Shown: one piece after another, positions 53,163-64,000 of the stretch
How positions within the stretch are numbered: the first letter of the stretch is position 1
How the letters are laid out: every line of letters begins with the position of its first letter
DNA from: Alphaproteobacteria bacterium
GTDB lineage: Bacteria > Pseudomonadota > Alphaproteobacteria > MPNO01 > UBA830
Direction: 5' to 3'
Length of the DNA stretch: 64,000 nt
Assembly (NCBI GenBank): GCA_965243135.1
Contig: OZ251539.1
Location: forward strand, 288,001-352,000
Notes under the pieces: generated by a model
What the model was told of the DNA's origin: nothing
The model's database searches: none
The model's input: only the letters and a program-made list of their open reading frames with translations
Program-made: the position numbers and the translations under genes

Positions 53163-53224
53163 AATTGCCCGTTCGACGACCGGGGAAGCCGCGCTCGGCG
53201 CTCGGGGAAAAGAGGGGCAGCGGA

Positions 53225-56103
53225 CTACCCGTCGCGGCGCTTTCCGCCGTGCACTGTGGGTTCGTCGCACCATTGAAGGCGAAGGTTCGCGAACGCTTCC
53301 AGCATGTCTTCGGGCAATTCGAGAAGTTCGACGAGGACGGCTCGATCCAGATCCTGGCGGGCAGCGTCGCGACAGGCCTCGTTCGCCGGCATCAGGGGAA
53401 CGTCCCGGAACCTTTCGAAGATGCTCGCCGCCCGTTGAAGCTTGACTTCCGACAGCGCCCCCGGATCGAGAACCGTCAGATTCGGCAAGCCGGAGATCGT
53501 CAATACCGTCCGCCCTTGCTGCTGGCGCGATCCCGCCCACCAGAAGGCCATCAACCCGAGCGTGCAGTTGGACCAGAGCGCCACGGCCTCGTCCCACCGC
53601 TCGTCGTGCAGCCGGAAGTTCGGCCAGGCCCGGCCGCCGAGCGCGCGCTCCCGCGTCAGGCAAGCCGCGAGGCTCTGCGAGTTGAGCCGGAAATCGCGAT
53701 TGAAGTGGAGCCGCGTCGCGGTTCGCCAGGCGGCGTCGGCCCGGTCTTCGCAACCCGGACGCGCCTCGCCCTCGCTGTCCGGCTCCACCAGCATGCGCCG
53801 CTCCCGGTCGGCATCGTGGCTCCAGAGAACCGGATAGCTGGGCGCGCCCTGAACCGGAACGATCTTGAACGGCCCGCGGAACGGCGGCTCTCCGTCGTTC
53901 TTGTTGCCGATATCGCGATCCAGCAGGCCGCGTTCGCCCAGTTGGCCGAGATGAACGACCGGCACGGCGTGGCGCCGCTCGTACCGGGGTATCCGTAGCT
54001 CTCCCCGCCGCAACGCCATCATCGCGTCGGCGAGCGCCGACTCGCGCAGGGCGGCGCATCCCCCCTCGCTCAACGGCACCCGGATATAGCTTCCCAGCAA
54101 CTGGCCGCCGGCGCGGATCCGGCCCGTCGCGGACGTCTTCGGCAGTCGCGCGACCAGCTTGGCGATTTCCGCCGCCTCGAGCAGCGCGGCCGGGCGGCGA
54201 TGAAGGTTCACGAACAACGCTGGCCCGGCCGAGCCGTTCCGGTCGCGCCGTTTCGTCGCCACCACGAGCGCTTCCGCCATGCCGGTGTCGGACGAGAACG
54301 CGCGATCGAAGTTTCCGGAGGCGGCGATGGTGACGACCGCGACATCCGCATACCGGTCGACAAGCAAGTCCCGGGCCGCTTGCCAGGACCTGCCCTGGAT
54401 GGCGGCGATGGGCAGGACCAGCGCCGCCACTCCGCCCGGTTTCGCCTTCGCGTGCGCGAGATCGATGAAGTTCGACGCGAGGCCGGCGTTGCCGTGGCCG
54501 GCGGGATTCTCCAGATCCCGGCGGATGTCCGCGAGGCGGGCGGACATCGCCCGCTGCTCGTCCTCGCCGGTTCGGAAGCCGGCGAAGGACGGGACGGGAA
54601 CCTCGGCGGTTTCGTGGTTGGTCGGACGGGTGAAGGGCGGATTCATGATCACGAGATCGACCGACTCGTGAGGCAACTCGATGTCCTGCGTCTCGACGTC
54701 GCCCTGCGCGCCTGCCGCTGTCCGGCGGCGAACAGGAACCGGGTCTGCGCGGCGGCGATCAGATCGAGCGAACCGATGGCGACGCCGCGGTCGCGTTCCT
54801 CGCCGGAGCCGATCCCGTAGGGCATCGTGTAAACGCGGGTGTTGTCGAAGACCGCGGCCGGGTGGACGCTCGACAGCTGCGAGGCGCAGAGGTGCGCGGC
54901 GGCGGGCATGATGTCCGCCGCGACGACGGAGCGCTCGATCATCCGCCGATGGATCGCGCCGTCGTCGCCGCCGGCGCGGCGATACCGGCCGAGCACGGCG
55001 TGATAGGCGGCGGACAGAAGCGTGCCCGTGCCGCAGGAGAGGTCGGCGACGGCGAGGTTCGGATAGGCGGCGAGATCGCTCCAGTCGGCGTCCATGCGGG
55101 CGACGGCGAGTTCCGCGAGCAGGGCGGCGCTGGTCGGAAGGGTGTAGAAGGTCGCCAGGAATTTCCGGTCGACGATCAGGTTCTGGAAGATCCTGCCCGA
55201 CAGGTCGTGGCGCGTCGTCACGCCGATATCGGCGAGCCGGTCCGCCGCGTCGGCGAGGGCGCCGAGAACGCGCTCCGCCGTCGCGGCGCGAATCGGAGCG
55301 ATGAGGTCGGAAGCCACCCTGAAGATCGGCCAGTAGTTGACTTCGAGAAGAATGCGCCGCCATGTCTCCAAAAGCGCCGTCTGGAGCGAACCGCGCGAAT
55401 CGGCCTGGAGTCGGGCGACGGACGGGATGTCGTGAACGCCGGCGATGGCCGCGTGAAAGGTCAATGCGTTGGCGATGATGGTCATCGCCATGCGGTTGGT
55501 CTGTTCGCCGGGATGCTGATTGAGGACCTGGCCGAAATCCCGCTCGATGTCCGTGAAGCCAAGTTCGACGGCGTCCTGGACTGCCCGGGTTGCGACGAGC
55601 ACGCCGCGTTCGAGTATCGACATGCTCTCGTCGACGCGGCGTTGCGACACCATCGCGTGTTCGATGCACCGGGCGACATGGTCGATGCCGCCGGCGAGCC
55701 AGCCCGTCTCGGGCCAGCGTTCGGGCGACGCCGGATCGCCGGAGAACACGCAATAGTCGAAGTCGGCGGCGGCGATGCGCTCGGCGAGGTTGGCTTGACC
55801 TTGCCGCAGGGCGTTCGGGATGCGGACGGCGACGGCCTGTTCGATGGGATCGGCGGACGCCAGCGGCGTTTTGCCGAGCCGGGCTTGGGCGTCGCTCTCG
55901 ACGGTGGCGGCCGGCGCGTACTCCGTTTCCACCGCCACCGGTTGCGCGTCGGGCGACTGGACGAGAATATCGGGTCGCAAGCGGGGGGCATCGGGAAAGA
56001 CGCCCGTCTGTTCGACGCCCAGATGGTCCCTCCACTGCGGGTGCTTGCCGCGCAGGACTTCGGCAAAATAACCGTTGAAGGCGGGCTCGCCGGTGCGTGG
56101 CAT
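53225..56103 (-). pseudogene. Type IIG-like fused restriction-modification enzyme (N6-adenine MTase), one frameshift near 54700
   Basis: N-terminal 'RPDI..VAVETE', 'FYT', motif I 'DLSCGTG', motif IV 'MNPPF' in a different frame. Confidence 0.8.
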
Positions 56104-56434
56104 GCCGGTTTTCTGACGAACGGCGGCGCGGCCGCGTTAGAGCGCGGCCCCCGATTGCCCCCGCGCACTTTGGCCGCTCTCGATCGGTTCCTTCGAAAGC
56201 GCATGCGCCTTCCGGGCATTCGCCCGGAATTCCGGGCTTCGTACGCACGGAACGCGGCGGCCAATTCCGCGCCCTGTCGCTTGCGCAGTCGAATCGCGGC
56301 CAAGCCGGGAGGTTTCGGCGACGCAGGCGACGGGCAGTCCCGTCTCCCGCTCGCGCCGCAAGGCGCCGGAACGCTCGGCGACGCGGCGGGCGCGTATGCG
56401 CGACATCTCTTCGCTCCCCGTCGTTCGGCTCGCT

Positions 56435-56600
56435 GGCAGTGGTTGTCCGGCCCTGCGTCCCAAGCGTCACCGTCCCGCCGGACGAAGTATATCCGCCAAC
56501 TGCGCGAAACGCGAATTCCGTACTGTCCGGCGCGGTCGCCGACCGGCGCTTCGAAGCGGTTGCCCAAGCGGCGCGCGAAAGCCTCGATGCGCTCCGAGGG
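56435..56600 (-). pseudogene. HigB-type toxin remnant
   Basis: 'GNRFEAPVGDRAGQYGIRV..WRIYF.RDGDA'. Confidence 0.6.
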
Positions 56601-57202
56601 GCTCGACGCCTTCGCGCGCGCTTCGCTTTCGTTCGAACGTCCGACCTCGTTCCGGGCCTGGAACGGCGCCGTAGAACTCAGGCCGAACGCCCTTGTCGCG
56701 AGGCCGGACGCCTGCCGTTTCCTGGACCTGTCCGGGGAGCCTGTCCGAGTTCACGGCGATATTCCGCATGCAGTGGATTTATTCGTTCTCTCGCGCGATT
56801 TCCGTATGACTGGACCGGATTTCAGGCGAAAGCGGGGATCCCCGGCTTCAAGTCGAGGGCTTCAGGAAGGACGCGCTGGTCGTCGGTCATTTGCGATAGC
56901 GTCCCGGCGAGGTTCGCGACGCCGGGAATCGGTCGAGTCGATCGACCGGTTCGACCGCTGAATTCGTCAGGCCGCGGAAGTGAATTTTACGCTCGGAAGA
57001 CTGCGCGGCGGCAAGGCGAGAACGCGGCGGAAGCACCGCAACCTTCCGGTCGATTCGTCGGCGGCCGCAGGGAGACGTGGCGGGCGTTCCGTGGAGCGCG
57101 CTCTCGACGCGATGTCGCTCCCGGTAGCCGGGGACAATTTCCTCGTCGCTCCAGTCTGCGCGGCGAAGAGCTTCTGGCCCGCGGTGCGCTCGACGCCGAA
57201 CG

Positions 57203-57312: not shown

Positions 57313-57615
57313 TCAACCGGTAAGGTGCGCGTCCCTTTTGCGATAGAGCGCTTCGTCCGCGTAACCCATGAAGTCGGGTTTCCGGCCGGTTCCGAGCATC
57401 ACCTGCATGTAGACGGGCGCCACGCTGTCGTTGCGGTAGCCGTGGATGACGCCGGCCGGACAGGAAACGCAGTCCCACGGACCGAGACGACGTTCGACGC
57501 GCCGTCCGTCCTCGTCGTCGAAGAACACCGTCAGATGGCCTTCCAGGATGAAGAAGACCTCCTCGGCCTCGTGGGTGTGCGGCGCGTTTCCTTCGCCCGG
57601 CGGCACGTACATTAC
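57313..57615 (-). pseudogene. Cupin-domain gene, apparently 5'-truncated at the element junction
   Basis: 'HTHEAEEVFFILEG', 'PAGVIHGY'; cupin-like sequence begins abruptly at 'MYVPPG'. Confidence 0.7.
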
Positions 57616-57620
57616 AATGT
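57609..57620. other. Candidate att core (ACATT-AC-AATGT)
   Basis: Perfect 5-bp inverted repeat around a central dinucleotide, at the cupin break. Confidence 0.5.
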
Positions 57621-57737
57621 GATGCGAGCAGTCGTGCAAGCCGGCAACTGTCCCCCCAGCCAGCGTTCACGCCATGATCAATAGGAGGGGGCAGAGAAGG
57701 GACCGTAGCCCGGAAAAGGCCGTTCGTCAACAGACAC

Positions 57738-57858
57738 GAAGAAAAAGGGGCCGGTGATCCCCGACCCCTGATTCGTCTTCGCGAAAACCCGCGCCCCACT
57801 GCTGGGACTGCGAACCTCGCAAAACATCGAGTTTCCTCGACAGCATCGCCAAAAGCTG
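57738..57858 (-). ncRNA. Candidate counter-transcribed RNA (ctRNA) upstream of repC
   Basis: Minus-strand promoter upstream; terminator ggggtcgg..ccggcccc-TTTTT. Confidence 0.65.
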
Positions 57859-57864
57859 TCGGAG

Positions 57865-57893
57865 AGATTACAGGGATGGTTTGCGCCCGTCAA
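57865..57893 (-). promoter_or_regulatory. sigma70-type promoter for the ctRNA
   Basis: TTGACG-N17-TAATCT on the minus strand. Confidence 0.7.
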
Positions 57894-57965
57894 CCGGAAT
57901 TTTCGGCGGGCCGGAATTTTTTCGCGAAGGGCCGCAAGCCTTTCACCGGGTCGGCTATTGCGACC

Positions 57966-59333
57966 ATGGATCTCCAGATTTCGGGCAGCGGCGCCTGCCC
58001 GGCGGGCGGAAGGCCCCGCCGCGAAATTCACTATCGGGCCGAATCGGCAGCTGCCGCGTTCACCGGCCTGCCGGAAGGCGACGACCGATTCGCCGTCGTC
58101 CGGGCGCTCAGGGAAGTCGGGCGCGAAGCCGGCTGGACCGGCCGGCTGATCGAGCATCTCGAGCTGCTGATCGGCTTCACGCGGCCGCAGGACTGGTTCT
58201 GCGGACACCGTCCGATCGTCTATCTCCAGGTCCAGTCGGCGGCGGAACGGCTGGGCCTCTCCGCCTCACAGATACAGCGCAACGAAAGGCGGCTGATGCA
58301 GTTGGGCGCGGTCTCGTTCCGCGACTCCGGCAACTTCCGGCGCTACGGCAAGCGCGACGGCGACGGCCGGCTCGTGGAAGCGTGGGGGATCGACCTGTCG
58401 CCCTGCGCCGCCCTTCTTCCGCGACTCAAGCAGCTGGCGAAGGAGGTCGCCGCCGAACGGGAGGAATTCCTGCGGCTCAAGCGCCGGATTTCCGCCGCGC
58501 GGCGGCGCATCGGGGCGGCCGTCGATTGCGCCGTCGCCGATTCGAAGCTGACGGAGGAGGCGGCGGCCGCGGTTCGCGTCGAACTGGACCGGCTGACGCC
58601 GCGAATCCGGGCGCGGACGCCGCTCGAGGCGTTGCGGCAGCAAGAGGACGGTCTGGACCGTCTCGACGCGCAACTGGCGGTTGCGATCGGAGCGGAAGAG
58701 CCGGCCGCGCCGGCACCCGGCGCGCCGCCGCCGCCGGTCGAACGGCCCGAGGATTTGCTCTCGGGAACCGCGGAAATGCGGGCCGCGGCCGCCGCAAATG
58801 CGGCCCAGGGACCGCATCGATGCGGCACGCAAGAATATTACAATACAAACCAAGAATGTACGAATAAAAATATTACCGTAGCCGGGGGCCGCCCGGAAAG
58901 AGGAGCGAACCGCGCCGCCGCCGCGCCCGGAGAGCGCGCGGCTGCGGGAGCTTCCGGCGGCGCGCGGACCGTCTCTTTTACGCTGCTTCTCGACCTGCTC
59001 TCCGAAGAATTCTTCGGGTATCTGCCGCCCGGCCGTCGGGTGGGCTGGAGCGAGCTGATCTCCGCCGCGGGCCTCGTCGCCACCGATCTCGGGATTTCGC
59101 TCCACGCATGGCGCGAAGCCTGTTACCGCCTGGGGAGGCAGACCGCCGCGACCGCCGTCGTCGTCATCGCCGCCAAGAAGGCGCGGGGCCTGATCGGTTC
59201 GCCGGGGGGCTACCTGCGCGGGATCACGCGGCGCGGCCTCGAGGGCGAACTCTATCTCGAACGGAGCGTTTTCGGCCTGGCCAAGGGAGAGGACGGCTAT
59301 CTCGTCCAGGGGCCCGAGGCCCGGTCGGCGTAG
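57966..59333 (+). CDS. repC: RepC-type replication initiator
   Basis: 'TRPQDW...PIVY', 'RDSGNFRRY', 'WGIDLSP', C-terminal 'LGIS..AW..A', 'SPGGYLRG'; internal AT-rich patch at 58830-58880. Confidence 0.87.
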   Translation: MDLQISGSGACPAGGRPRREIHYRAESAAAAFTGLPEGDDRFAVVRALREVGREAGWTGRLIEHLELLIGFTRPQDWFCGHRPIVYLQVQSAAERLGLSASQIQRNERRLMQLGAVSFRDSGNFRRYGKRDGDGRLVEAWGIDLSPCAALLPRLKQLAKEVAAEREEFLRLKRRISAARRRIGAAVDCAVADSKLTEEAAAAVRVELDRLTPRIRARTPLEALRQQEDGLDRLDAQLAVAIGAEEPAAPAPGAPPPPVERPEDLLSGTAEMRAAAAANAAQGPHRCGTQEYYNTNQECTNKNITVAGGRPERGANRAAAAPGERAAAGASGGARTVSFTLLLDLLSEEFFGYLPPGRRVGWSELISAAGLVATDLGISLHAWREACYRLGRQTAATAVVVIAAKKARGLIGSPGGYLRGITRRGLEGELYLERSVFGLAKGEDGYLVQGPEARSA

Positions 59334-59805
59334 GGAGAACGGAGGAGGAGAACATGACGGTTCATCGAAAGGGCACGGGACCCCCGGTCTCGTTCTTGTC
59401 GTCGAACGCCCCGCGCGGCGGACGGCTCCGCCCGGTCGGAAGCTCCCGGCGCGGTCCGACGACCGGGAAGCGGCGCCCGTCGCGCCGGACGCGAGACGAA
59501 GGCGCTCGCCGGGAGCGCCGCCCTCCGGACGGCGGCCTTGAACGACGCGCGGCGCCGTGCCGCGGCGAGCGGCGCCGGACTGCCGAAAGCGTCCGCGCCG
59601 CCGGTCCGGAGATCTTTGACGAGGCGAAACCGCGCTCGGCAGGCGGATTCTTTTGGAACCGTCTGGCGCGGTTTCGGCGGGCGCGGCGCGCGGCGGAAGA
59701 ACCCGAACGCAGGGCGTTACGCGCCGGGCCGTCTGTCGCCATGAACATGGCGACGTGTATGCAGGGAACGCGCGCAAACGAGCGCGCAGAAGAAGGGAGA
59801 AAGTC

Positions 59806-61332
59806 ATGAAGGTTTCAAAACGCGTCGCGATCTACGCGCGTTTCAGTTCGTCGCTCCAGAATCCGAAGTCGATCGAAGACCAGATCGCCCTGTGCGAGCG
59901 GCGAATCCGGGAAACGGGCGGCACGGTCGTGGCCACGTTCAAGGACGCCGGGATGTCCGGCGCCAGCATGCGTCTGCGGAAGGGGCTGATCGACCTGCTG
60001 ACCGCGGTGGAAGAGGGGACGATCGACGTGGTTTGGGCGGAGGCCCTCGATCGCCTGAGCCGCGATCAGGCGGACATGGTCCAGATCTACCGGCTCCTGC
60101 AATTTCACGACGTGGGACTGTGTACGCACGAGGAGGGCGAGGTTTCGGATCTCCATGTCAGCCTCAAGGGCGTGATCAACGAGACCTTCCGGACGTCGCT
60201 CTCGCAAAAGGTGCGGCGCGGCAAGCTGGGCGCCGCGACGCGCGGCCGGGTGCCGGGCCGCAACTGCTACGGCTACCGGGTTTTGCCCCGCCTTCCGGGC
60301 GAACCCGGCGGGAAACAGGAAATCGTGCCCGAACAAGCGGAGACCGTCCGTCGCATATTCCGCTTGTACGTCGGCGGAACGGCGCCAAACGAGATCGCCC
60401 GGATCCTCAACGAGGAGGGCATTCCGGGTCCGATGGGCAGGGAATGGAGCGAAAGGGGCATCTCGGGTTGGAGGAAGCGCGGGAGCGGCATCCTGCGCAA
60501 CAAGCTGTACGCCGGAATTCTGGTGTACGGCCGGACCCGCCGGTTTTCGGACCCCAGGGCGGGGCAAACCCGACCGCGTTTCGTGCCGGAATCCGAGTGG
60601 TCGGTTCGGGAAGTGCCGCATATGCGGATCGTGGACGACGAGCTCTGGCAGCAGGCGCAATTGCGGGGCTGCGCAGGTTCCGACCGGTCCCGGAGCGGCG
60701 GAAAACGCGTTCCGCATCCTCTGACGGGAGTGCTCTCCTGCGCGGTTTGCGGGGGCATCCTCAGAGTTCGGAACGGCAGAGGCTACACCTGCAAGAGGCA
60801 GGACGACAGGCGGGGTTGCGACAACAGGATGCGCATCGACGTCAGGCGGACGGAAGACCGGGCGCTTCGCGAACTGATCCGGTGGGTGGAATCGTGGCGC
60901 GAGGGTTCCGCGCTGCTCGCCTCCGGAATTCGGGAATACGAGCGAAGAAGGGACCGCCTCGAGACGAAGATCGTAGACGGGAAGGAGAAGATAGCGCTGC
61001 TGGTCGAGAGCATCGAGCGGGGAGGAAAGGAGCCGCGGGCGGTCGCGCGGCGCATCGGCGATCTGGAGCGGTCGGTCGCCGCCCTGACGATCGAATTGAA
61101 GTCCATGCGCCGTCCGGAAGAACGCTCGGCGGCGGACCTGCTTGGGACGCTGAAGTCCGCGCTCGAGGGGCTCGTCGCCGCCGCCGCTGACGACGACACC
61201 CGGCGGGACGCGTTGCTGAAGTTCCGGGACCTGGTCGAGCGAATCGACCTCTCGCCGACGTCCGAAAAGGGAGAGTTCGAGATGACGGTGCGCCCGCGCG
61301 TCGACGCGCTTGTCGCGCTGGTTCTCGAATGA
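59806..61332 (+). CDS. Large serine recombinase (resolvase + recombinase + Zn ribbon + coiled coil)
   Basis: 'YARFSS', 'DRLSR', 'YGY', 'ILRNKLYAG', 'CAVCG...YTC...C'. Confidence 0.93.
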   Translation: MKVSKRVAIYARFSSSLQNPKSIEDQIALCERRIRETGGTVVATFKDAGMSGASMRLRKGLIDLLTAVEEGTIDVVWAEALDRLSRDQADMVQIYRLLQFHDVGLCTHEEGEVSDLHVSLKGVINETFRTSLSQKVRRGKLGAATRGRVPGRNCYGYRVLPRLPGEPGGKQEIVPEQAETVRRIFRLYVGGTAPNEIARILNEEGIPGPMGREWSERGISGWRKRGSGILRNKLYAGILVYGRTRRFSDPRAGQTRPRFVPESEWSVREVPHMRIVDDELWQQAQLRGCAGSDRSRSGGKRVPHPLTGVLSCAVCGGILRVRNGRGYTCKRQDDRRGCDNRMRIDVRRTEDRALRELIRWVESWREGSALLASGIREYERRRDRLETKIVDGKEKIALLVESIERGGKEPRAVARRIGDLERSVAALTIELKSMRRPEERSAADLLGTLKSALEGLVAAAADDDTRRDALLKFRDLVERIDLSPTSEKGEFEMTVRPRVDALVALVLE

Positions 61333-61379
61333 CCGCAGGCCGCCGGAAGCCGAAAGGCTTCCGGCGGCGGCTGCCCGCT

Positions 61380-62018
61380 TCAGTCGGCCCGCGCCAATTC
61401 GTCGAGCAGCGCGTCGCTCGCGAGGCGCAGGAGTTCCAGCGCGAGTTCCGGCGGCGGCGGCCGTTCGATCCACTGGATTTCGCAAAGGAGGTAGCCGGGG
61501 CCGGCCAGCCAGGCGATGCCCTTCGAATCGTCGACCTCGTCGTCGTCGACCGCGGCGCCGTCCGGGTCGCAACCGACGATCCGGCAAACGAATTGCGGGC
61601 TGCCCATATGGACGAGGTATTCCCGCCGGTCGTCCTCCCCGTGCGCGAACAGCCACTCGTCGGGCGGTCTCCGCGTTTCCGGCTCGCCGGTTCCGTCCGC
61701 GATGCGGCAGACCAGCGCCGGCGTCGCCAGGTGAACGACATAGTTCGGCCACTTGCCGGAGGCGTCCTTCGGGCCGCGGGCGTACAGCCAGTCGTCGCGC
61801 CGGAATTCCGGCACGGGCGCGGTGCGGAGGCGGTAGAACTCTTCGAAGCGGGCCCGGTATTCGGGCGGGATCGGGCAGACGCCGCCCGCCCAGCCGCGGG
61901 CGTCGGCGAGAGGAATGGAGAAGGATTCGGCGACCGCCCCGACGGCATCGAGCGACGGGCCGCAAGCGACGACCGCGAACGCGCGGAATCGGGCAGATGT
62001 CCAGTGTCTGTCGTTCAC
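61380..62018 (-). CDS. Hypothetical protein with an internally duplicated domain
   Basis: 'WLYARG..YVVHLATPALVCRI' and 'WLFAHG..YLVHMGSPQFVCRI'. Confidence 0.6.
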   Translation of the reverse strand: MNDRHWTSARFRAFAVVACGPSLDAVGAVAESFSIPLADARGWAGGVCPIPPEYRARFEEFYRLRTAPVPEFRRDDWLYARGPKDASGKWPNYVVHLATPALVCRIADGTGEPETRRPPDEWLFAHGEDDRREYLVHMGSPQFVCRIVGCDPDGAAVDDDEVDDSKGIAWLAGPGYLLCEIQWIERPPPPELALELLRLASDALLDELARAD

Positions 62019-62239
62019 GGCGGGTCTGCGCTCCCATGCCGGGAGGGGCTGCTCGACTTCCGGCGGGATCCCCTCGGGCCGACCGACGGCTCCGCGCCCG
62101 TAAGCGCACGGCGCCGAATGATGGTGGGTTGCGGCGGAATGGTCAAACGGGTTTTTTTCGGACGGGGCGACTCACCGGCCGACCCGTCGATAGGGTGATT
62201 TCGCGTGTCCAAACGTTCTCGTGCACGGGCAAAGGAGCA

Positions 62240-63202
62240 TGACGGATGGACAGGGCATTCGTAGTCAGGACTGAGCATGAGGGTTTTCCTGTCGAGGGCG
62301 TACCAGCTCGCGGCGGGGCATGCGCGCATCGGGTGGTCCAGTCTGGACAGCCAGGATCTGCGCGTCGCGGAATCTGGAGCAGGGACATGGCCTCGACGAA
62401 GACCAGCAATCCGCGAGGAAGTGTCTCCGTTTCCTCACCGAAGTGGGCAAAGGCGATCTTCTCCTTTATCCGCATCAGCCGGCGAGAAACCAGTTCACGG
62501 TCGCGCGAGTGACCGGCGACTACGGTTACGACAGCGGATTGGGGGAAGACTTTCGGTCGTTTCGGCCGTGCGCGCTCGTCACTCAGAAACCAGTGTCGCT
62601 GCGCGACGAAATCGTCCCTTCCTCGCTGCGTCACCGCATGGGGCGCCCAGGCCGTTTTTCCGAGGTGAGCGGTCCGTTGCGGGACTGCCTCGATCGCCTG
62701 TCGAAATCTGGACGTGATCAAGACGGTACGAACAGTGCAGCCCTTAACCGCATCCACGGGAAATTGAGAGAATCGCTTCCCGGTTTCATTCATCAAGAGT
62801 TCAGCAGAACCGACCTTTCGCGCAAGTTTTGCGCGGAACTGTCGCATGGGGTACTTCTGCGAACTTCAGGAAGGGCCTGCCGAGGCGGGTTCGGACATCG
62901 TCCTCACCGTCGGTGACCGTTTTCTGCCTGATGACGTCAACTCCAGGGTTGGGGTGCAGATTTTTTCCTACAGGGGCCCGGTCGACGAACACGCGCTTAA
63001 AGAGAAGTTGGAACAACTTCTGCAAGGCTGGGAACGGAACGATCTCGATTTCGGAGCGCTTCTGACGACGGGCCGTTGCGACGAGGAGGCGGTGGCCATG
63101 CTTCGTCGTCACAATGAGGACGATCGCCAACGACAGGTCAGATTGATCGATGGCGACGAGCTTGCCGTTCTGCAGCATTTCCCGCCAGGGGGCGGGGCTT
63201 GA
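62240..63202 (+). pseudogene. Mrr-like restriction endonuclease, frameshifted
   Basis: N-terminal 'ARIGWS', 'VGKGDLLLYP..VARVTGDY'; C-terminal 'GSDI..VGVQ..LLTTG..LIDGDEL'. Confidence 0.65.
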
Positions 63203-63799
63203 CGGACGGCGCAACCGCGATCTCCGGGTTCGCCGACGCGCGAAGGACGGCGGCGCCAGCCGACGGGTCGGCTCGCGCCACGACAGGTTTTTCGCATGGT
63301 TCCGGAAAGGCGGATCGCCGGTTCGGAACGCGGCACCGTTCGCCGGGCGGCACCTGCCGGACATATCCAGCGCGTCGGCGCATCGCGGCGTCCTCTTCGC
63401 CAGCTTCCATGCCGTTCGTCTCGACAATGGCCGACGTCGACAATGCCGGAGGGCCGGCCGTTCGCGCATCCCGTCGCGCACTCGTGACGGCGGACGGTTT
63501 CAGGCGGTTCGCGGCGGCAATTCCTCTCGCTGCCGCGGGTTGTTGCCCAGGCAAGCGGTCGAAAGGTAAAACGGCGAAGCGCTTTGTCTGGCCGGGCGAC
63601 GCCCGCCATTGCCGGAGGCTCCCCGGGCGTCCCCCGGTCGGCCGCCGGAGACGGGGCAGGCGGCGTTCGCGCGTTGTGGAAGCATCTGGTTATGGAGACA
63701 GTACGGACCGGGCGCAGCCCAAGCGCCCTCGGGGAACAACTGGCGCCGGTGCTGCTGCGAATGCGGCGGGCGCGGGTCGAACCCGTGTGCCAGGTGACG

Positions 63800-64000
63800 A
63801 TGTCGGTTCCAACCGACGATGTCGATGCAACGTTCGGCGCGGCGCGGACCGAGGCGCTGCGGTGGATGCAGGAACGAGCGGGCCGCCGGTTGCCGGCCGA
63901 GGCGTGGGACGGCGGCAGTTTCGATCTGGCGGATATCGGGGCGCCGCGGACGGAGGCGACGTTCCTCGAAGAAATCGGCTACTGGGCGGGGCGGGTGGAC
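63800..64000 (+). CDS. Hypothetical protein, runs off the window end
   Basis: Open frame 'MSVPTDDVDATF...ALRWMQERAGRRLPAEAWDGGSF'. Confidence 0.45.
   Translation, partial: MSVPTDDVDATFGAARTEALRWMQERAGRRLPAEAWDGGSFDLADIGAPRTEATFLEEIGYWAGRVD

Follow-up and report, generated by a model that had tools for sequence, protein, structure and literature searches.

Genes at the left end of the element

The 64,000-nucleotide stretch of contig OZ251539.1 analyzed here (the window; genome 288001-352000, G000:C1, in a genome of 6.10 Mb on a single contig) carries near its end a replication gene (repC), a predicted antisense RNA, and a large serine recombinase (LSR), beside one half of a cupin gene. This locus is almost certainly the left end of a 166.5-kb integrative and conjugative element (ICE), integrated by the LSR at an AC core in the cupin gene. 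Coordinates are window positions unless labelled genome, and the element starting in the window is referred to as copy 1.

The repC gene (57966-59333, plus strand) encodes a RepABC-type initiator of 455 aa with Pfam RP-C and RP-C_C matches (NF040974, 198 bits against a cut-off of 150). An A+T-rich patch within it (58831-58880) is a candidate origin (oriV); its 76% A+T in the most A+T-rich 50 nt is reached by 2 of 608 similar-sized genes. Directly upstream lies an antisense gene resembling those for counter-transcribed RNAs (ctRNAs; 57738-57893, minus strand), with a promoter-like site, TTGACG-17-TAATCT, at 57893-57865, a predicted RNA of ~120 nt, and a terminator at 57769-57746. A strict sigma-70 scan called no promoters, this antisense site included, and Rfam returned no ctRNA family match and one unrelated sub-threshold match. 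A hairpin with a U-run in the repC leader (57901-57916, plus strand) is positioned like the attenuator of repABC leaders and may play that role (PMC3155836; here and below, papers are cited for the portions of their text that were available). Neither repA/repB nor intact parA/parB adjoins repC. The arrangement that defines repABC, with repA-repB upstream of repC in the same operon, is thus absent, and RepC, a predicted upstream antisense RNA, and the lack of repAB, which together mark a repC-family replicon, were all found. By gene order the element is not repABC, yet it would be expected to work like a repC-family replicon. The layout of repC, A+T-rich patch, and ctRNA gene is intact in all three copies of the element in this genome.

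The LSR (59806-61332, plus strand; 508 aa) is intact, with Resolvase, Recombinase, and Zn-ribbon domains. These three domains, together with a 2-bp core between inverted arms, place it in the LSR class; DUF4368 was not found in it by Pfam. The original prediction, made from the window alone, had proposed that an LSR integrated an element with a RepC/ctRNA replicon into a cupin gene at an AC core, and had named the antisense promoter and terminator, repC without repA/repB, its A+T-rich patch, and the intact LSR; all of these held.

In copy 3 and most relatives, parA-parB lies downstream of repC. A ParA-like open reading frame (ORF) starts between repC and the LSR gene in 8 of 12 other elements, and probably in a ninth, and ParA and ParB were confirmed in 5/5 and 4/4 proteins tested, respectively. 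The 151-aa ORF overlapping the LSR start (59354-59809, plus strand; no Pfam match) is probably a remnant of a parA-parB deletion; its 3' end in copies 1 and 2 matches the 3' end of copy 3 parB in two pieces (75-76% DNA identity). The lone repC thus seems to have arisen by deletion from a repC-parA-parB-LSR operon.

Element ends and target gene

The 3' half of the host cupin gene (57313-57615, minus strand) comprises 100 codons from VMYVPP, with a Cupin_2 match at 57316-57639 on the minus strand. The 5' half, 77 codons ending in FTLS, was found 166,494 bp downstream, at genome 512110-512340, where it lies downstream of an NMT1/ABC operon. The halves rejoin in frame (77 + 100 codons), and copy 1, inside the cupin gene, is 166,494 bp long. 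The left attachment site, attL (57590-57640), has its core AC at 57614-57615 (from genome 345614), and the core AC of attR is at genome 512108-512109; the element-side arm of attL is an imperfect inverted copy of the attR arm. The original prediction had proposed to search beyond the window for a cupin 5' half with a second att half-site. It had also looked to intact homologues to locate the break, and in intact cupin orthologues the halves are contiguous in 9/9 loci, with an NMT1 neighbor in 8/9. A cupin match was obtained in 26 of 31 genomes.

The cupin break had been put at 57612, on the inverted repeat ACATT-AC-AATGT (57609-57620). The junction stood and the break position did not: the most likely crossover position is the AC dinucleotide at 57614-57615, since only there would copies 1 and 2 have identical element-side arms. 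A crossover at CAT (57610-57612) was rejected, since the two copies would then have differing element arms. The repeat is unique in the genome, where perfect 5-2-5 inverted repeats number 12,681; such a repeat alone is weak junction evidence because it is frequent by chance. The junction is supported by the match to copy 2, which begins at 57610, and by the presence of the cupin 5' half beyond the opposite end. Copy 1 is therefore integrated between recombinase att sites with its target in frame, as is an ICE.

The read evidence consisted of assembled contigs, which lose rare forms, from runs X1, X3, and X4 of one study, which may include the source, and from X7, a sponge metagenome of another study. 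In X1 and X3, the contig on the element side starts at 57614, and the cupin-side contig enters the element by 29 bases, unbranched, in X1, X3, and X4. Since contigs of these three runs span attL, the junction is real. In X7, one contig tracks the cupin gene to 57616 and then diverges, like an empty site, and two contigs reach the element from different flanking sequences, at 57609 and 57615, as further junctions would; these contigs are suggestive only.

In the joined ends, an 18-bp outer inverted repeat would be formed by 57660-57677 and its inverted copy at genome 512063-512080, and a comparable outer 12-bp inverted repeat occurs in the metagenome locus L089. We considered whether the 18-bp repeat could act as an RNA switch that, in the circle, exposes the ribosome-binding site of pilN, the first gene of the pilus operon, which starts ~65 bp inside attR. 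Folding gave no support, the site being paired in the copy 1 circle and unchanged in copy 3.

Outside the element, a large methyltransferase/restriction-like gene in two frames adjoins the cupin 3' half (53165-56715; genome 341165-344715). Two copies of this gene, 94-95% identical, lie just past attR (genome 521687-525245 and 528495-531427), with an intact cupin paralogue beside them at genome 521315.

Sibling copies and relatives

The three copies in this genome lie in three unrelated genes. Copy 2 (169,380 bp) is in a DctM/TRAP permease gene, which rejoins in frame, and copy 3 (~101 kb, core TA) is in an AAA-ATPase/PD-(D/E)XK gene. The repC-LSR region of copy 2 is 97-99% identical to that of copy 1 (LSR 99%), and copy 3 is 65% identical in repC and 56% in the LSR. 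Copies 2 and 3 cover copy 1 only partly (56% and 29%, respectively), which indicates a common backbone with differing cargo. The insertion sites show that the LSR has relaxed target specificity, because copy 2, whose LSR is 99% identical and whose arms are the same, was integrated into the TRAP permease gene.

Copy 3 additionally holds a broken extra LSR (genome 2993256-2994204; 85% DNA identity to the 3' part of the window LSR), which suggests recombination between sibling elements. An orphan right end of a fourth element (L015, genome 3203950-3204325) has an attR-like arm, an outward promoter site, and a broken pilN start, and continues into restriction/methylase genes, with a repC fragment at genome 91312-91602.

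Among the 60 genomes compared for relatives, repC was found in 8, the LSR in 12, and pilN in 7. The adjacency of repC and LSR, which the original prediction proposed to survey, recurs with the LSR downstream of repC in seven other genomes (G001, G002, G004, G043, G047, G051, and G053). The relatives with the same repC are metagenome-assembled genomes of Alphaproteobacteria, and the pil-tra gene order is conserved in relatives. The 13 left ends scanned lie at tRNA-Met (2 loci), tRNA-Ser (2), and otherwise other genes; in the relatives inserted at tRNAs, the att cores have no firm placement. Two metagenome loci (L086 and L088) with the same right end as L089 sit in a Mg-chelatase-family gene, which we take to be comM. 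Ends in G043 and G057 (L044, L046, and L054) lie beside ubiG-like and, in G043, lysC-like starts, presumably an intergenic target.

The element family is rare outside the order, with a repC match at E 1e-25 in 2 of 400 further genomes sampled across the class; even among 77 further genomes of the order, only 7, from two genera, have pilN. None of 23 pilN candidates in viral contigs was confirmed by alignment, and the left-end pattern had no match in JGI metagenome contigs. Close relatives of RepC (P0001-P0008) do occur in ENA metagenomes.

Elements in G047 and G004 stand in tandem, with pilN of one element facing the repC of the next across ~400 bp. The array in G047 (C2:405000-820000; L036, L037, L038, and L063) lies at a tRNA-like end and comprises two or more full elements plus a third left end, and that in G004 (C1:3680000-3762000; L039 and L040) lies at tRNA-Ser.

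Conjugation module and cargo

The right 29 kb of the element, 98.6% identical between copies 1 and 2, contain a pil-tra module, in which Dot/Icm-IncI-like genes and the gene for a VirD4-like coupling protein come after a type IVb pilus operon. The original prediction had seen no conjugation genes and had called the element compact; a full set lies outside the window but within the element, which at 166.5 kb is not compact. The Pfam scan covered 71 proteins, i.e., most of the better-scoring ORFs of copy 1 and its right flank. The conjugation families found were T4SS-DNA_transf, DotH/IcmK, DotI/IcmL, TraI/DotC, DotD, DotA/TraY, DotB, IcmT, TraQ, PilN/Q/R/S/V, and TrwC/MobF. A MOBF relaxase with a primase domain is encoded at genome 433693 (MobF, 156 bits against a cut-off of 100). 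A 970-aa ATPase is ~36% identical to plasmid proteins, one of them labelled IcmB; it had no Pfam or NCBIfam match, and its IcmB-like identity comes from the plasmid matches. Thus, a relaxase, coupling protein, VirB4-like ATPase, and mating-pair formation (MPF) genes, the set expected of an ICE, all lie within the ends. The MPF genes are of type I, as DotA/TraY, DotB/TraJ, DotC/TraI, DotD, DotH, DotI, DotG/TraO, IcmT, and TraQ are all represented, with DotA_TraY, DotH, DotI, TraI, and DotD above cut-off and the other members below equivalog cut-offs.

The cargo includes ArdC, restriction-modification and other defence-like genes, ankyrin/Sel1/TPR proteins, and a Xer-like recombinase, and one of 27 unassigned proteins had a PHROG match, the function of which is unknown. 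A cluster at genome 390220-401348 (L003) encodes cysteine desulfurase, PAPS-reductase-like, GmrSD, SNF2 helicase, and ParB-like proteins, and presumably resembles a phosphorothioation-type defence locus. A ~240-bp dispersed repeat, like a miniature inverted-repeat transposable element, occurs in tandem inside the element (genome 389614-390116) and also lies in ~60 other places.

Convergent on the LSR gene lies a 212-aa ORF (61380-62018, minus strand), kept in all three copies (97% and 51% identity). It had no Pfam or PHROG match and gave weak helix-turn-helix-like leads only (scores ≤0.77); its product is a candidate regulator or directionality factor. It is followed by a restriction-like cargo gene in shifted frames (62277-63202, plus strand; Mrr_cat in the last piece) and by the beginning of a 529-aa cargo ORF that fits no known family (63761-64000, plus strand). 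The element runs ~160 kb past the window.

Promoter motifs at the ends and a possible excision-gated replicon

The pattern TTGAC-N16-18-NANNNT was sought at 15 left ends (13 single ends and 2 tandem junctions). In copy 1, an outward promoter-like site, P_L (TTGACG-17-TACGGT; 57702-57730, minus strand), faces the cupin 3' half when integrated and pilN in the circle. Such a site lies just past the ctRNA terminator in 15/15 left ends, and a ctRNA-type promoter site was found in 13/15. Left ends L036, L037, L038, L043, L047, and L048 have a long hairpin between the outward promoter and the att site, the loop region of which holds a short palindrome (e.g., CTGTTTCAACAG in L038) that could be a parS or regulator site. 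No sense site towards repC was found at any of the 13 single left ends, and the one seen at each of the two tandem junctions is the right-end site of the neighbor; under relaxed settings, 4,408 nt yielded 2 sense sites against ~3 expected, i.e., no excess.

At the right, an outward site with an exact 17-bp spacer lies over the pilN start in all 10 genome ends that have pilN as their last gene, against a background of 8 in 3,357 genes of this genome, and the spacer is kept across diverged sequences. Of 23 new metagenome pilN loci, four were dropped (start missing or partial match); the full site occurs in 8 of the 19 evaluable ones and the -35 alone in 2. The 8 positives represent about five distinct ends, two of them close to the training set. 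L089 has both convergent sites and the 12-bp outer inverted repeat around one junction, which fits a joined end of a relative, either circular or tandem.

These motifs suggest the following model. While integrated, the repC(-parA-parB)-LSR operon would have no sigma-70-type promoter of its own, and its internal origin would stay quiet. Excision would join the ends, rejoining the cupin frame as a by-product. The attR outward promoter would then drive transcription over the junction, along the leader controlled by the ctRNA, and on into repC, replacing the repAB promoter of repABC plasmids, and the attL outward promoter would read the opposite way into the pilus/transfer operon. The circle would replicate at low copy, transfer by MOBF/MPF-I conjugation, and reintegrate. 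In this way, a single LSR event would convert a quiescent island into a conjugative plasmid that replicates, and the integrase may retarget easily among tRNAs and coding genes. If this is true, the chromosome tolerates a plasmid origin since the promoter stays at the other end.

We consider the explanation as a whole, a RepC-carrying LSR ICE with repC switched on by excision, to be probable. The chances of the excision-gated promoter step itself are evenly balanced. More tentative, falling slightly short of even, is the wider proposal of an undescribed ICE family of marine, apparently sponge-associated Alphaproteobacteria, in which the theta replicon is recombination-gated and the repC and pilus/MPF-I operons are promoterless when integrated and are both activated by two convergent promoters meeting across attP.

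Several observations weigh against excision gating. The end promoters are sigma-70-type motif matches only, and the right-end -35 overlaps the pilN coding sequence. Three of 13 genome pilN loci, those with an extra gene upstream, and 9 of the 19 evaluable metagenome loci lack the right-end site. Several of the positives are closely related to each other, which inflates the number of apparently independent cases. At the tandem junctions in G047 and G004, the right-end promoter is set before a chromosomal repC and is evidently tolerated. No promoter for LSR expression in the integrated state was found in the scan, although the LSR shares the repC operon and some LSR must be made while integrated. 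Finally, the empty cupin site for copy 1 was not seen in the X1, X3, and X4 contigs, which drop rare forms. As a separate observation, a second subfamily (L050, L052, L053, L075, and L076) has a small helix-turn-helix-like ORF immediately before pilN, and the right-end promoter site is missing there.

Alternative explanations

The alternative that survives best, with a substantial but clearly less than even chance, is an ordinary ICE or integrated plasmid. Its repC would be vestigial or driven by a promoter of its own that escaped recognition, and the outward motifs would have other functions: they might relieve polarity on host genes, keep host transcription from running into repC, or produce small RNAs, for example. 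In agreement with this, the left outward site points in the sense direction into the split-gene 3' halves of copies 1 and 2 and faces the tRNA transcript in tRNA-inserted relatives, and repC-family plasmid replicons function without repAB (PMC10194956). The split or partial state of repC in G051, G004, G002, and G057 and the loss of parAB in copy 1 also agree with it. Disfavoring this alternative are the layout kept intact in all three copies, the lack of a conserved sense site in left ends, and the 17-bp right-end spacer kept across diverged sequences.

The original prediction also held that excision would repair the cupin gene as a gene switch. The repair stands, as excision would rejoin the frame, whereas a dedicated switch is very improbable. 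In the skin and nifD elements, programmed excision repairs an interrupted gene, and the exact restoration of the frame of a conserved cupin gene (26/31 genomes) would agree with such a role. However, the fixed single target of a gene switch is missing: the near-identical copy 2 sits in a TRAP permease gene, copy 3 in an AAA-ATPase gene, and relatives at tRNA-Met, tRNA-Ser, and a Mg-chelatase-family gene. Moreover, all nine orthologue loci are uninterrupted, and the element is fully equipped for conjugation.

A compact integrative replicon or integrative and mobilizable element, a prophage, or an assembly artefact is barely credible: the first would agree with a window that alone shows no conjugation genes but not with a right end 166 kb away and a full MPF module, the second conflicts with the single PHROG match among 27 unassigned proteins and the lack of a pilN relative in viral contigs, and the third with the contigs of three runs that span attL.

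Comparison with known systems

ICE replication is mostly relaxase-driven. ICEclc and Tn916, for which relaxase-based rolling-circle replication is described, capture promoters on circularisation (Pcirc in ICEclc), and these drive the integrase in ICEclc and transfer genes in Tn916 (PMC5812530). The present element would resemble them in that an outward end promoter is set before element genes upon circularisation, and would differ in that two convergent end promoters drive a theta-type RepC operon and a pilus/transfer operon. Like the ICEs surveyed by Cury et al. 2017 (PMC5587801), it has an integrase at one end, a relaxase, a coupling protein, and a mating-pair system. Its combination of MPF-I, serine recombinase, and repC sets it apart, as in that survey MPF-I was found in none of 200 ICEs and called extremely rare, and serine recombinases were a small minority; some ICEs carried partition and theta-replication genes, and the term repC is absent from the main text.

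With repABC/repC replicons (PMC3155836 and PMC10194956), the element shares RepC, an A+T-rich patch inside repC, and an antisense gene with a terminator directly upstream. For repABC plasmids, it is the expression of repC that allows the internal origin to be used, with the ctRNA acting on the transcript that reads through (PMC3155836). Unlike these replicons, the element is chromosomally integrated, has the order repC-parA-parB-LSR or repC-LSR, and has no repAB promoter upstream; its predicted ctRNA is also longer (~120 nt vs 55-59 nt; PMC3155836 and PMC10194956). Its repC had no full-length match among 72,556 plasmids (21 partial matches, none covering 80%).

As in the multi-targeting LSRs of Durrant et al. 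(PMC10083194), near-identical LSRs use unrelated targets with a shared dinucleotide core, although that class is defined by more than three targets and two target genes are seen for the copy 1/2 LSR, with the X7 contigs hinting at others. With defined att sites and differing cores (AC and TA), these LSRs are possible integration tools. No published account of the element family was found by title or opening of the abstract; the supplementary tables of Durrant et al. and Cury et al. could list such elements.

Like the IncI/Dot-Icm-like plasmids of Roseomonas, Methylorubrum, and others, the element has an IcmB-like ATPase (~36-38% identical) and a dot/icm/tra plus pil set. It differs from them in being integrated, in its MOBF relaxase, and in a pilN without a match in the plasmid collection at E 1e-20. 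Taken together, the family joins a repABC-type initiator with a ctRNA, an IncI/Dot-Icm-like mating system, and a serine integrase, and is thus a clear intermediate between plasmids and ICEs.

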